Shown: positions 31,254-36,599 of the stretch, piece after piece
How positions within the stretch are numbered: position 1 is the stretch's first letter
Layout of the letters: the number at the start of each line of letters is the position of its first letter
Sequence record: PZ496580.1
Strand: one strand, 5' to 3'
Source: a phage
DNA length: 64,000 nucleotides
The notes under the pieces: model-generated
The model's input: the letters and a program-made list of their open reading frames with translations, nothing else
The model's database searches: none
What the model was told of the DNA's origin: nothing
Translations under genes and position numbers: made by a program

Positions 31254-32039
31254 TTACACGCGAGCACCGTAGATCGTGCCTACTTTATCCCAGCGAGGGG
31301 CATTGCCAGTAACAGCCTTACCAGCTGCGCCACCCGAGTGAACAGTTCCTCCAGTACCACCTTGAATATATGAAGATTTGCCAGCAGACCCCAAATCTCC
31401 ACCATTTCCTCCATAGTGAACCCCAGAAACAGTGCCTTTACCTGGGGCAGAAATTGTACCAGCAGATGCTGCCGCTGCGCCGCCTCCTGCCTTACCAGCA
31501 GCACCAAATGGACGGCCTCCGCCGCCTCCAAATATCATATCCATTTGAGGGAAAGGATGGTATCTAGCACCAGCACCGCCACCACCGCCACCACCAATAA
31601 TACCATTATTGTTTATTCTTAAACGAGTTCCAATTCCGTTATTTATTGCATTTCCTCCTGCTCCACCAGCAGAGTTACTTCCGCCATTTCCTCCCCGACC
31701 TAATACATGAACACCAGAGTTAATGATTAGTGTCACATATTCATTTGTTAGTGAGCTAGGGAAATCAAGACAAGGAACGCCAGTAGATTGGGAAACAATA
31801 TTACCTGTGATAGTAATTACTACCGGAGTAGATCCTTGTGCTTTCATCCAGTTAATAAGAGTGTCTTTATTGTAAGAGTTACTAGCGCCAATGCTATAAT
31901 GAATCTCTTTAGAACGTCCGACCATCGCTGACATATACGCCGGACGACCTAAGCGTACAGCTTGCATTGCGGCGCTCATCCACCGTTGACCAGTCTCAGA
32001 CACAGCCGATGATCCGACCCAACCTGCTTTAATTGCCAT
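31254..32039 (-). CDS. glycine-rich low-complexity protein
   Basis: 261 aa; long GGNGG/GGGGGGGAGA/GGTGG tracts in C-terminal two thirds, non-repetitive N-terminal 100 aa. Confidence 0.6.
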   Translation of the reverse strand: MAIKAGWVGSSAVSETGQRWMSAAMQAVRLGRPAYMSAMVGRSKEIHYSIGASNSYNKDTLINWMKAQGSTPVVITITGNIVSQSTGVPCLDFPSSLTNEYVTLIINSGVHVLGRGGNGGSNSAGGAGGNAINNGIGTRLRINNNGIIGGGGGGGAGARYHPFPQMDMIFGGGGGRPFGAAGKAGGGAAAASAGTISAPGKGTVSGVHYGGNGGDLGSAGKSSYIQGGTGGTVHSGGAAGKAVTGNAPRWDKVGTIYGARV

Positions 32040-32093
32040 AAAGTTTCCTCACAAGAAAAGCCCCAATTAAGGGGCATTGATTAATAATATTAC

Positions 32094-33597: not shown

Positions 33598-33626
33598 ATT
33601 ATGCTATACCCTATTCCGGTTGTCAA
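33598..33626 (-). promoter_or_regulatory. early promoter (TTGACA-17-CATAAT) with conserved leader
   Basis: minus strand TTGACAaccggaatagggtatagCATAATgcacacatcgacaacaaaggagaatcaaaATG. Confidence 0.6.
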
Positions 33627-33631
33627 CACCT

Positions 33632-33663
33632 AAAAACGAAAAAGCCACCCTTTCGGATGGCTT
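33632..33663 (-). terminator. intrinsic terminator after 715-aa gene
   Basis: minus strand agccatccGAAAgggtggct followed by ttttcgttttt. Confidence 0.7.
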
Positions 33664-33674
33664 TTGATTATATT

Positions 33675-35822
33675 TTATTCACGTCCATTTGTATAGTAGT
33701 GTTTGAATCGACCATAGCCAGTTTCAATAGACATATCCTTCTGGCGGACAATAGCCCAATAACCATTACACGAATCTTGAAGATACAAATCCTTACCTTT
33801 TAGGAACTCATTAAAGATAGTGATTTGCCAGTCATAGTAGACAGAATCTTCAAGTTTATCCATCCAACCATGCGGATCTTCCATCAATTCGACAAGCTCA
33901 TCAATCACCCAATACGGACACGGACTAAATCGACCTTTGCTAAACTCGTTAAACATAGTAACAATTTTAACTTCCGGTCTAGGTTCATCCGGTCGCACAG
34001 GACGTTTATTAACTACAACCTGAACATATTTTGTATACCCGACAATCTCGCCAGGATCTAGTTCATCGTTGCTGTTTTTATCAGCAAATGCAACAAATCG
34101 ATAAACACCAGCATCCTCTAGCGTAACGTTTGCTTTACGGTAAATCGGACTTCTTGAGTCTTCCATTTCCATTTTAACACCGTTTTTACTAAACTCATAA
34201 GTCGGAACATATGAGGCTGGCGGTTTTAGCATGGTTGCTTCTAGCGTCAGAGTATCACCTTCCGTAACCTGTACCGGATGAGGACCGTCAAACTCCATAT
34301 TCGGCACTACTTCAACATGATAGGTCGAACGACCAGCAATATCAAAATCAGTATGCGCACTAAATGGATCTTTACTCGGACTATCACGATATTCATGCGC
34401 CCAGATGCCGTTATGGTCTCGGTCCGCAGAGTCGGTGATCTTATATTCCTTAGTACCTAGCGGAAGTTCCGTTACTTTAACGTCGTTTTTGGTGATAACC
34501 AAAGTTCGCGTTTGTTCGGGATCATCACTAGCTGGCGGTTCAGGATCTACGATCTTGAGAACAATAGGTTCACCCACTTCAATATTACGATAATCATACT
34601 CTTTATCATAAATCTCAAGCATACGACGATCATAAAATAATGGGCGACCGTTAGGAATCACCTGTTCACCCGCTGGATTGGCAGGAGCAACCAACAATTG
34701 AAGCGCAACGCTGTTATCATATTGCAATCCAGATAGCGTTATCCGGTCATAACCCTCATCGCCATATTTTTTACTTTGTAGTTTCTTACCGCCAAGCATC
34801 CACGTAAAGTAAACGTTGTTAGTAAGCATACCATAATGACGATTCCATGAGCTATCGGCTTGCATCACTGGCATATCAAGGTTTACAGTAGATCCAGAAG
34901 GATAACGAAAATCAATAGCACTAAAATCACGGCTAAAAAATTCGTTTTCTTTTACGTTAACTGTAAATTGGTGTCGCTGTCCATCAATATATTGTTCACC
35001 AGATCCGGGTCCATTAACAACCTTATACGCACGAACAAAAGCAACATAAACCCCAGCATCTGACGGTTGAGCGTGTTTAGTCACGTATAGAGTCTTATCT
35101 TTAGACTCATAAACCAAGCTACCATCATTACGCTCTAGTCGATATCGGACAATAGTATATTCCGCCTGATTAGGTGCATCATCCTCTACAGTAAAATAAG
35201 CAGGTGCATATTTTTGTACGTTGAATACTTCCTTATTTTCAGTGATGTTTGCATAGAAAGGATATACAAATTTAACCTCACCATGTTCATCACTCAATTC
35301 CATTTTATATGTACCGGAAAATTCAGGCCACGCGAATTTTGCAATTTTAAATTCACGATGGTCCAACCCCAGATCACCATCAACGGAATCAACCAAACCA
35401 TCATTATAATAGAGGTCAACCGAAATATTAGGCTGGATATGACTACGAAAAACAATCTTTGCCTTGATTTCATCACCAATATTAAAAGACGTCGGCGGGT
35501 ATACATGTTCCACATATGGATTGTCAAAAAGTTCAAAGGTGAAGTTTTCCGTGCCGATATCTACGGATTCGCCAGAAAGATTTTCATCATCTTGAGCAAA
35601 ACCACGAACATTAACAGACCAACCTGTTTTATCTTCCTCTTTAACAGATTTTAGTGGAAAAGATGGACCATCTGTCATTGTGATCAACTTATCATTCTTT
35701 TTCCACAAATAACCTTTTCGTCTTTTCTCTGGGTCTTCCGACTCAGCAACAATAGAACATTCAAAAGTATGAGGAAGCCAAATTTGAGAGTTAATTGTAG
35801 TGTTTTTGATTTCTGCTGGCAT
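33675..35822 (-). CDS. large multi-domain protein with Ig-like (beta-sandwich) repeats
   Basis: 715 aa; repeated Ig-type signatures (SDAGVYVAFV, EDAGVYRFVAF); no signal peptide seen. Confidence 0.5.
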   Translation of the reverse strand: MPAEIKNTTINSQIWLPHTFECSIVAESEDPEKRRKGYLWKKNDKLITMTDGPSFPLKSVKEEDKTGWSVNVRGFAQDDENLSGESVDIGTENFTFELFDNPYVEHVYPPTSFNIGDEIKAKIVFRSHIQPNISVDLYYNDGLVDSVDGDLGLDHREFKIAKFAWPEFSGTYKMELSDEHGEVKFVYPFYANITENKEVFNVQKYAPAYFTVEDDAPNQAEYTIVRYRLERNDGSLVYESKDKTLYVTKHAQPSDAGVYVAFVRAYKVVNGPGSGEQYIDGQRHQFTVNVKENEFFSRDFSAIDFRYPSGSTVNLDMPVMQADSSWNRHYGMLTNNVYFTWMLGGKKLQSKKYGDEGYDRITLSGLQYDNSVALQLLVAPANPAGEQVIPNGRPLFYDRRMLEIYDKEYDYRNIEVGEPIVLKIVDPEPPASDDPEQTRTLVITKNDVKVTELPLGTKEYKITDSADRDHNGIWAHEYRDSPSKDPFSAHTDFDIAGRSTYHVEVVPNMEFDGPHPVQVTEGDTLTLEATMLKPPASYVPTYEFSKNGVKMEMEDSRSPIYRKANVTLEDAGVYRFVAFADKNSNDELDPGEIVGYTKYVQVVVNKRPVRPDEPRPEVKIVTMFNEFSKGRFSPCPYWVIDELVELMEDPHGWMDKLEDSVYYDWQITIFNEFLKGKDLYLQDSCNGYWAIVRQKDMSIETGYGRFKHYYTNGRE

Positions 35823-35843
35823 GTATCCCCCTTGTGACTGACA

Positions 35844-36242
35844 TTAAGCCAGTCGAGTGAGTTTATAAATTGTTTTAAAGCATAGAACTTTGATATCGTC
35901 TAAAACGCTCTGTAACGAGCTATCAACATCATTATAAATCTCACTAGCCATTTGCGTTAACTCTTGCAAATAGGCAATTTCGCTAATCTCCTTGCGGACG
36001 ACCAACGTTGGCTGATAACGACCAGTGATCCCAATATTGGTTTCAGTGAAATTATCAACCAATTCTTGCATTTCAAGATAGAACTCTTCTAAAGCCTTAT
36101 GTTTTGCATAAGATCCTGGACCAGTTACCCCAAAATGCGCAGAATGCATATAAGTAACACTCATCAGACATTCACCGATAAAGCGGTCAACTTTATTAGC
36201 TTTCCCCTCTTCGGACGTCTTTCGAAAATCACTGAATTTCAT
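35844..36242 (-). CDS. Dps-like ferritin-superfamily protein
   Basis: YMHSAHFGVTGPGSYAKHKALEEFYLEMQELVDNFTE matches the Dps ferroxidase-site pattern H..H..VTGP.....H...EEFY.E.....D...E; start at internal Met. Confidence 0.7.
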   Translation of the reverse strand: MKFSDFRKTSEEGKANKVDRFIGECLMSVTYMHSAHFGVTGPGSYAKHKALEEFYLEMQELVDNFTETNIGITGRYQPTLVVRKEISEIAYLQELTQMASEIYNDVDSSLQSVLDDIKVLCFKTIYKLTRLA

Positions 36243-36531
36243 GTTCTCGATTCTCCACATTATGCAACATAACAAATTGTTGTGCGGCATATTCCCCCAT
36301 AATAAAACACTGCTTAGAATCCATACATTTACTACGAGCATACATCTTCATAATATGGGCATGAAATTTCTGGCTGGTTTCAATGGAAGGAGATATTTTG
36401 TTTACATATACTATCATTGCACCGTCGAAATAATCAGTAAAGTCACCAGTTGGATCATATTGATCAGCACTGACGCTTCCGACCGCAGTCAAGCATATTG
36501 CCGCTGTTAGAGTTTTACGAATAAATGACAT
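36229..36531 (-). CDS. secreted small protein (signal peptide)
   Basis: N-terminal MSFIRKTLTAAICLTAVGSVSA signal-like segment. Confidence 0.55.
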   Translation of the reverse strand: MSFIRKTLTAAICLTAVGSVSADQYDPTGDFTDYFDGAMIVYVNKISPSIETSQKFHAHIMKMYARSKCMDSKQCFIMGEYAAQQFVMLHNVENREHEIQ

Positions 36532-36564
36532 AAGTCATTCCCCCAGATTGAAAATATTCAGTTA

Positions 36565-36572
36565 TATTTATA
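36565..36572 (-). promoter_or_regulatory. candidate T4-type late promoter (TATAAATA) inside a 9-bp inverted repeat
   Basis: minus strand ccccagattATAAATAtaactgaatattttcaatctgggg, ~35 nt upstream of ATG at 36531. Confidence 0.3.
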
Positions 36573-36599
36573 ATCTGGGGCTTTATTTATGATTAACTC

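Follow-up and report, generated by a model that had tools for sequence, protein, structure and literature searches.

The DNA considered here is a 64,000-nucleotide (nt) stretch of the phage sequence record PZ496580.1 (the window), which tblastn places in the genus Krischvirus (RB49-like Straboviridae). Its minus strand, the early strand, carries an open reading frame (ORF) of 715 amino acids (aa), ORF715, preceded by tk, rI and rI.-1 and followed by a block of small ORFs and then the gp38 adhesin gene. Most likely, ORF715 belongs to the Hoc family, of which it would be the third and a strongly diverged member in an RB49-like Krischvirus subclade. Table 1 gives the features of the locus; amino-acid numbers refer to the 715-aa protein.

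ORF715, its relatives and its Ig-like domains

The initial annotation placed a 715-aa frame at 33675..35822, where the ORF listing has it on the minus strand, and called it the largest non-core ORF of the early region. This also holds: DNA polymerase (902 aa) alone exceeds it on the early strand, where NrdD (620 aa) and a gp46/SbcC-like protein (565 aa) are smaller. The product is an acidic protein of 82 kDa with an isoelectric point (pI) of 4.87 overall and 4.69 in its C-terminal anchor. Its N-terminus, MPAEIKNTTINSQIWLPHTFECSIVAESEDPEKRRKG, has by inspection no hydrophobic signal-like stretch, and a strong intrinsic terminator lies 10 nt past the stop codon, in agreement with the earlier statements that the protein has no signal peptide and the gene its own terminator.

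Among 5.8 billion clustered proteins we found 15 clusters of homologues, all full length and 58-98% identical to ORF715; some contain tens of metagenomic member sequences. An exhaustive hidden Markov model (HMM) search of 1.84 billion representatives added one more divergent full-length member, P0016, and one remnant. The rest of its matches were generic Ig-repeat (immunoglobulin-repeat) proteins at aa ~35-75 and ~514-578. No intermediate relatives were found by this search with the full-length profile, which returned two representative clusters, the remnant and generic Ig-repeat proteins only. ORF715 is 98% identical to proteins from Shigella phages SSG23 and SFHK24, Escherichia phage UPWr_E1 and phage Brandy, and 78% identical to those from G2248 and JK32; in all six GenBank records the product is labelled "hypothetical protein". 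We found no mention of the gene in the papers searched, among them those on Brandy49, SSG23 and Krischvirus.

ORF715 is under purifying selection. The ratio of nonsynonymous to synonymous substitution rates (dN/dS, omega) is 0.11 against the G2248 orthologue (dS 1.3) and 0.05 against that of SSG23, with all domains constrained. Conservation peaks in the C-terminal anchor (mean pairwise identity 87%, omega 0.055) and is lowest in the distal domain D1 (62% mean identity, omega 0.21). A conserved anchor with a variable tip is the Hoc-like evolutionary pattern.

An AlphaFold2 model built with the family alignment (mean predicted local distance difference test score, pLDDT, 77) has six consecutive all-beta domains of ~100 aa each across aa 1-607, followed by a small alpha/beta C-terminal domain of low confidence. 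In Foldseek the chain matches six-Ig proteins (contactins, sidekick) with E values down to 7e-19 over ~690 columns. From a viral library it retrieves the G2248 orthologue, other multi-Ig phage proteins and a second, 846-aa protein of G2248 that is a Hoc paralogue. The initial annotation had proposed a multi-domain Ig-like protein and pointed to structure prediction as the check; Ig-like folds are indeed predicted.

At the sequence level the Ig signature appears at D1 and D6 only, and D3 has a DAGVY motif. D1 has an I-set type signature (KGYLWKK...SVKEEDKTGWSV), and D2 has no sequence signature and no profile similarity to the other domains. The two beta-sandwich signatures reported earlier, SDAGVYVAFV (aa 254-263) and EDAGVYRFVAF (aa 569-579), are real but weak in sequence: the Pfam Ig_3 match in D6 (aa 514-578; 22.8 bits, E 1.3e-4) falls below the 30-bit cut-off. 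It is the only match in the Pfam scan, which gave no other domain and nothing at the C-terminus. D6 also matches Hoc-like and tail Ig families in PHROG and is weakly similar in sequence to T5 pb10-type Ig domains (PDB 5lxk, 8zvi). Comparison by hhalign of the six beta domains among themselves and with the Ig domains of Hoc and the 846-aa paralogue gave nothing significant (best P 1.3e-3). Weak similarities link D5 with D6 (P 0.0013) and D3 with one of the Ig domains in the 846-aa paralogue (P 0.004). A history of internal duplication for the six domains was considered and is not supported by these values.

Table 1. Predicted and annotated features of the ORF715 locus (window positions)
Feature	Position	Strand	Basis or remarks
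ORF715 coding sequence, Hoc-family paralogue (very likely), 715 aa	33675..35822	-	ATG start, stop codon 33675-33677; full-length homologues
D1, distal, predicted Ig-like, aa 1-99	35526..35822	-	Ig-repeat proteins match aa 34-76; all-beta, pLDDT ~90
D2, predicted beta-sandwich, aa 100-195	35238..35525	-	strands 104-191, pLDDT 80-91; whole-chain Foldseek match
D3, predicted Ig-like, aa 196-292, carries SDAGVYVAFV	34947..35237	-	model, Foldseek
D4, predicted beta-sandwich with short helix, aa 293-405	34608..34946	-	model of lower confidence (pLDDT 60-84); Foldseek
D5, predicted beta-sandwich, aa 406-506	34305..34607	-	model, Foldseek
D6, predicted Ig-like, adjoins anchor, aa 507-607, carries EDAGVYRFVAF	34002..34304	-	Pfam Ig_3, PHROG, profile search, model
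Pro-rich linker (aa 608-620) and putative Hoc-type C-terminal capsid-binding domain (aa ~621-709)	33678..34001	-	profile homology, fold
Shine-Dalgarno sequence of ORF715, AAGGGGGA, 3 nt before ATG	35826..35833	-	kept in SSG23, G2248, L007
Intrinsic terminator ending the rI / rI.-1 / ORF715 unit	33640..33665	-	11-bp stem, 4-nt loop, T-run; annotated terminator in G2248
Near-consensus sigma70-type early promoter, TTGACA-17-CATAAT	33598..33626	-	starts next unit, marks 3' boundary of ORF715 unit
rI.-1 / DUF5856, Dps-like, upstream gene of unit	35844..36242	-	Phi1 and RB49 annotation; Pfam DUF5856; phrog_858
rI antiholin, upstream gene of unit	36229..36531	-	Phi1 and RB49 annotation; Pfam Antiholin
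TATAAATA late-promoter motif	36565..36572	-	exact; 34 nt upstream of rI start, 750 nt upstream of ORF715 start
Conserved RNA hairpin around TATAAATA, tk-rI intergenic	36541..36580	-	dG -22.5 kcal/mol, z -4.55

The C-terminal domain

Several comparisons tie the C-terminus of ORF715 to Hoc. The last 108 aa alone match a single one of 38,880 PHROG families, phrog_1149 ("Hoc-like head decoration"; E 1.3e-6), and the match covers the C-terminal positions 1076-1145 of the 1150 in the profile; the full-length protein matches the same family with E 8.9e-10. By hhalign, the last 112 aa of the ORF715 family align with 15 canonical Hoc C-terminal domains, including those of T4, Phi1 and relatives from Shewanella and Aeromonas phages, with a probability of 96% (P 4.4e-9, 66 columns). 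Searched against PDB sequences, the family profile matches T4 Hoc, query residues 629-688 aligning with Hoc residues 302-361. A focused AlphaFold2 model of aa 600-715 (pLDDT 78, predicted template modelling score 0.70) has the element order beta-beta-alpha1-alpha2-alpha3-beta-beta-beta, and its sole structural neighbour is capsid-bound Hoc (8t1x_X). Canonical Hocs make up 13 of the 23 rows of the alignment behind this model, and a family-only model has the same element order at pLDDT 40-70. The fold of the Hoc C-domain has been described as having no other PDB neighbour (PMC10385173), which makes the match specific. The four tests of anchor homology are largely independent of each other.

BLASTP of ORF715 against Phi1 Hoc gives a co-linear alignment with E 0.017, unconvincing by itself. 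A reciprocal word-indexed search with a three-sequence Hoc C-domain profile, which served to gather diverse Hoc C-domains, did not return the 715-aa family, but it examined just 93 candidates and is an unfair negative.

We compared the anchor with the conserved and capsid-contact residues of Hoc given in PMC10385173. Identical between T4 Hoc and ORF715 are W310 (W638), D313 (D641), Q354 (Q682), S356 (S684), N358 (N686), G359 (G687) and Y360 (Y688); W309 and E355 are conservatively changed to Y637 and D683. These residues lie in two retained motifs, PYWVIDEL (aa 636-643) and QDSCNGY (aa 682-688). No variation occurs in the 16-sequence family alignment (A1) at Y637-W638 and D641, nor in the helix-1 motif YWVIDEL or the capsomer-contact loop Q-D-S-x-N-G-Y as a whole. 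The T4 loop E355-S-R-N-G359 corresponds to D683-S-C-N-G687 in the family, with K in place of C in P0016.

Judged by its sequence, the C-terminal domain is a genuine but strongly remodelled Hoc anchor, and we consider it very likely that ORF715 is a Hoc-family homologue. The initial annotation had contrasted ORF715 with virion decoration proteins. Its last ~95 aa form a Hoc-type capsid-binding domain by these comparisons, which would put it in exactly that class. The same annotation had called ORF715 an atypical early-region copy; it is atypical only in location and divergence, and it is a very diverged paralogue, with about 27% identity that is confined to the anchor, and not a copy of a late-cluster gene.

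Paralogues, deletion scars and the transcription unit

ORF715 is an extra Hoc and not a replacement of the canonical one. All 59 Krischvirus records that we surveyed keep a full-length canonical hoc gene between gene 24.3 and inh (408 aa in SSG23). A further paralogue of 846 aa (XHY52999.1 in SSG23, at L006:3411-5951 on the plus strand) lies outside the window's range, between inh and hoc. It matches phrog_1149 with E 8.6e-50 and carries some eight Ig-like repeats; its anchor shares 49% identity with that of Hoc and keeps YVHPIPWRR and ESRNG intact. It is annotated as "head outer capsid protein" in JK32; by these sequence criteria it is unambiguously a Hoc-family protein. The genes for the 715-aa and 846-aa proteins lie ~55 kb apart and differ in their patterns of divergence. 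Both are present in the same six records (SSG23, SFHK24, Brandy, JK32, UPWr_E1 and G2248) and both are missing from the other 53. This co-occurrence may merely reflect shared ancestry.

Traces of both long genes persist where the genes themselves are missing. Phi1 retains the first ~31-41 codons of the 715-aa gene and codons ~648-715. RB49 shares this 5' stub and has kept, in addition, a 40-nt island (codons ~620-632) and ~12 codons at the 3' end. Phi1 ORF168.1 (54 aa) is an N-terminal stub of the 846-aa gene. P0017, a 118-aa metagenomic protein, joins an unrelated N-terminus to the final ~64 residues of ORF715 (compare window 33675..33870) and is a third, independent type of deletion derivative besides the scars of RB49 and Phi1. 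Because RB49 and Phi1 contain both N- and C-terminal scars of the 715-aa gene, we rejected the idea that it was inserted in the carriers. The scars point instead to an ancestor with three Hoc-family genes and to the loss of the two long ones along the RB49/Phi1 lineage; in most of the Krischvirus genomes sequenced, the 715-aa gene has undergone stepwise deletion.

Elsewhere in SSG23, two extra ORFs of 310 aa and at least 467 aa lie beside gp24 (L006:10871-13224, minus strand), where Phi1 has two tiny ORFs. PHROG gives no functional match for either, except for a weak stretch resembling tail fibres in the 310-aa ORF; the two could be a mobile element or additional accessory genes of the head module.

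Only 21 nt separate the stop codon of rI.-1 from ORF715, which indicates that the two are co-transcribed. We compared this arrangement with locus L007, from a 59%-identical metagenomic relative, and locus L009, which carries P0016, the most divergent member. In SSG23, G2248 and L007 the gap is ~20 nt, in L009 it is 12 nt. The order vs, tk.4 (macro), tk, rI, rI.-1, ORF715 is kept in L007 and L009 while the downstream genes vary. A terminator follows ORF715 in all four loci with a downstream flank that was read (the window, SSG23, G2248 and L007); in L007 its position is kept and the hairpin sequence differs.

Two of the flanking genes merit separate mention. The Tk.4 homologue (window 37881..38336, minus strand), kept in the conserved gene string upstream of tk, is a macro-domain protein, with a weak Pfam Macro match in L009 and the label "phosphatase" in the SSG23 annotation. 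In L007, a cytosine DNA methylase gene (PF00145; L007:10246-11214, plus strand) lies downstream of the ORF715 homologue and replaces the small ORFs of the window. This difference marks the junction of terminator and early promoter after ORF715 as a recombination boundary.

Upstream of rI lies an exact copy of TATAAATA, the T4 late-promoter consensus. The window has four exact copies in 64 kb, and this one is alone on its strand within about 10 kb. It is kept in SSG23, G2248, L007 and L009, that is, in every lineage examined. Counted together with its one-mismatch variants, the motif is depleted in the window (85 observed against 137+-12 in shuffles), which is consistent with selection against spurious late promoters. 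The hairpin that surrounds it overlaps the rI Shine-Dalgarno sequence with its 3' arm; the L007 hairpin has z -4.34 and compensatory changes in the arms, and pairing in L009 is similar. In T4 genes e and soc, the ribosome-binding site is hidden in early read-through RNA, and the late RNA has its start within the hairpin. The rI hairpin looks like a switch of this type, and if so, rI translation would be late-specific in these phages. By the same analogy we infer that the TATAAATA promoter is functional and that the rI / rI.-1 / ORF715 unit would be transcribed late, up to the terminator.

Early expression of ORF715 is also possible, judging from the sequence, because its ribosome-binding site is unsequestered in the centroid fold. 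Early read-through is likely, since no terminator-like site was found between tk and ORF715's own terminator except for one weak internal match. The placing of ORF715 in the early region by the initial annotation is correct for its position on the early strand, but it does not establish timing: the unit is headed by an exact TATAAATA, and gp38, a gene of late function, lies on the same strand. "Early-region protein" is thus a statement on map position only.

The gp38 long-tail-fibre adhesin gene itself (window 31254..32039, minus strand; Gly-rich motifs) starts only ~20 nt past a terminator hairpin at 32060..32075 on the same strand and has no TATAAATA upstream. The sequence gives no obvious route for the transcription of this late-function gene.

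The role of ORF715 and comparison with known systems

We think it probable that ORF715 is a capsid decoration protein that acts like Hoc. It would be made at least late, from TATAAATA transcripts, and probably also from early read-through transcripts. After capsid expansion, the C-terminal domain would dock on gp23* capsomers in the manner of Hoc, and a six-Ig fibre, with twice the three domains of T4 Hoc and proportionally longer, would project from the head. This fibre could share the head with canonical Hoc and the 846-aa paralogue, or compete with them. Its variable distal domains might mediate weak adhesion to glycans or cell surfaces (the bacterial envelope, mucus) or alter virion dispersal, and the protein would be dispensable for plaque formation. 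Roles in adhesion and dispersal have been proposed earlier for Hoc (PMC10385173).

Several observations weigh against this interpretation. BLAST-level searches link ORF715 to Hoc in neither direction, the identity of the anchors is only about 20-27%, and the profile match to the T4 Hoc sequence reaches only E 0.014. The beta1 motif YVHP[LI]P, with Y293 and H295, is missing: the aligned segment is EVKIVTMFNEFSKGR, with no Tyr or His equivalents. The counterpart of R300 is ambiguous (K629/R631), and R357, which pairs with D313 in T4, is Cys in the family and Lys in P0016. Given these changes, binding to the same gp23* groove is not assured. For D2, D4 and D5, the Ig-like assignment comes from structure prediction only. 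As to expression, ORF715 is not part of the head module but follows tk-rI-rI.-1 on the early strand, and its TATAAATA, 750 nt upstream, primarily serves rI. Immediately ahead of ORF715 there is no promoter; the best candidate is a 10/12 sigma70-like match inside rI.-1, with no TATAAATA there. Finally, a literature search found no virion proteomics or cryo-electron microscopy for any carrier phage.

The anchor changes bear most directly on the possibility that ORF715 is a virion protein attached elsewhere, whether to a subset of capsomers, the gp24 vertices, the neck or collar, the tail, or the 846-aa paralogue. Y293/H295 and R357, lost or changed in ORF715, are kept in both other Hoc-family proteins of these phages, the canonical one and the 846-aa paralogue. 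The perfect co-occurrence of the two long genes in 6/59 records despite their distance and differing divergence would fit attachment to the paralogue, and some PHROG matches of the Ig domains are annotated "tail protein". However, the contact loop and YWVIDEL are retained and invariant, and the only structural neighbour is Hoc on the capsid. The "tail" matches are limited to the generic Ig domain D6, and shared ancestry can explain the co-occurrence, both genes having left deletion stubs in the RB49/Phi1 lineage. We regard attachment elsewhere as unlikely. A more specific proposal is that the diverged anchor sends the ORF715 fibre to a different capsid site or capsomer subset from that of Hoc, so that three paralogues decorate one head in a defined, non-competing pattern. 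Co-occurrence with the 846-aa protein, strict in spite of the mosaic divergence of the two loci, would then be the sign of a functional partnership: together the fibres would form an adhesion coat that natural or animal-associated settings maintain and that the RB49 lineage has lost. We give this proposal a somewhat smaller chance.

The position of the gene suggests a different alternative: a non-structural accessory factor, intracellular or released, tied to rI / rI.-1 lysis inhibition, host takeover or defence and re-using Ig-like and Hoc-derived domains. The order tk - rI - rI.-1 - ORF715 with its short gap is kept in all members examined, including P0016, while the downstream side varies, and ORF715 is an early-strand gene for which early read-through is likely. 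But ORF715 has no signal peptide or membrane segment and therefore cannot reach the periplasm, where rI acts. RB49 and Phi1 keep rI and rI.-1 after deletion of the ORF715 gene, so rI function is independent of ORF715. Its best-conserved part is a Hoc-type capsid anchor, which has no known role beyond capsid binding (PMC10385173). A non-structural role is again improbable, a shade less so than the partnership just described.

That ORF715 is a decaying or functionless remnant, open by chance in a few genomes, is very improbable: 53 of 59 Krischvirus records hold scars only, with several different deletion derivatives, but dN/dS of 0.11 at dS 1.3 across all domains effectively refutes a pseudogene, full length is kept in 16 clusters down to P0016 (some with tens of metagenomic members), and the ribosome-binding site and terminator are conserved.

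If ORF715 does decorate the capsid as Hoc does, phages of the Brandy49/SSG23/JK32 type would bear three different Hoc-family fibres per capsid, one of them invisible to BLAST-based censuses of Hoc. The sequence space of the Hoc capsid anchor would be wider, which would be useful for engineering of T4-type capsid display. Isogenic-like relatives that have or lack the two long fibres would provide a natural system for the study of host finding, mucus adherence and virion dispersal. SSG23, UPWr_E1 and JK32 are carriers in phage-therapy development, for which an unannotated and probably highly immunogenic surface protein would be relevant to pharmacokinetics.

The closest known system is Hoc itself, as seen in T4 and RB49 (PDB 8t1x for the C-domain on the gp23* hexamer, 3SHS for RB49 Ig domains 1-3; PHROG 1149). 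Hoc and ORF715 share an N-terminal Ig-like string joined to a C-terminal alpha/beta capsid-binding domain of ~90 aa, the motifs [WY]WV.DE[IL] and Q-[ED]-S-x-N-G-Y, a conserved anchor with variable distal domains, and, it appears, dispensability. The pI of ORF715 (4.87) falls within the range of Hocs (4.2-5.2; Table S1 of PMC10385173). ORF715 differs in having six predicted Ig-like domains to the three of Hoc, and an anchor that lacks YVHP[LI]P and has C or K at R357. Its gene follows rI.-1 on the early strand, whereas hoc lies between gene 24 and inh, and both occur in one genome. The 846-aa paralogue resembles ORF715 as a long multi-Ig Hoc-family protein that is found in the same six records and left an N-terminal stub in Phi1. 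Unlike ORF715, which is far more diverged and unlinked, it has a canonical anchor and adjoins hoc.

Phages with two Hoc-like proteins have been described, namely Serratia phage Muldoon (Hocs of 1174 aa and 314 aa) and Enterobacter phage PG7, as have Hocs whose Ig domains number from one to ten or more, and the anchor has been presented as a portable module for capsid display (PMC10385173). Like these phages, the Krischvirus carriers would have more than one Hoc capsid-binding protein per genome, with very long Ig strings and a "functionalised" capsid surface. A BLAST search with the C-domain of T4 Hoc found the Muldoon and PG7 Hocs, which are much closer to Hoc than ORF715 is; in the carriers there are three paralogues, one of which BLAST does not detect and which lies away from the head module. 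T5 pb10 and similar proteins (PDB 5lxk, 8zvi) parallel the role proposed for ORF715 as decoration proteins at the hexamer centre with an Ig-like domain, but they have a single Ig domain and an unrelated, N-terminal capsid-binding domain. Overall, long Hocs and two-Hoc phages are already published, so ORF715 is interesting but not unprecedented; what is new relative to known Hocs is a third paralogue per genome, an anchor invisible to BLAST, a place in the rI unit and strict co-occurrence with the 846-aa paralogue.

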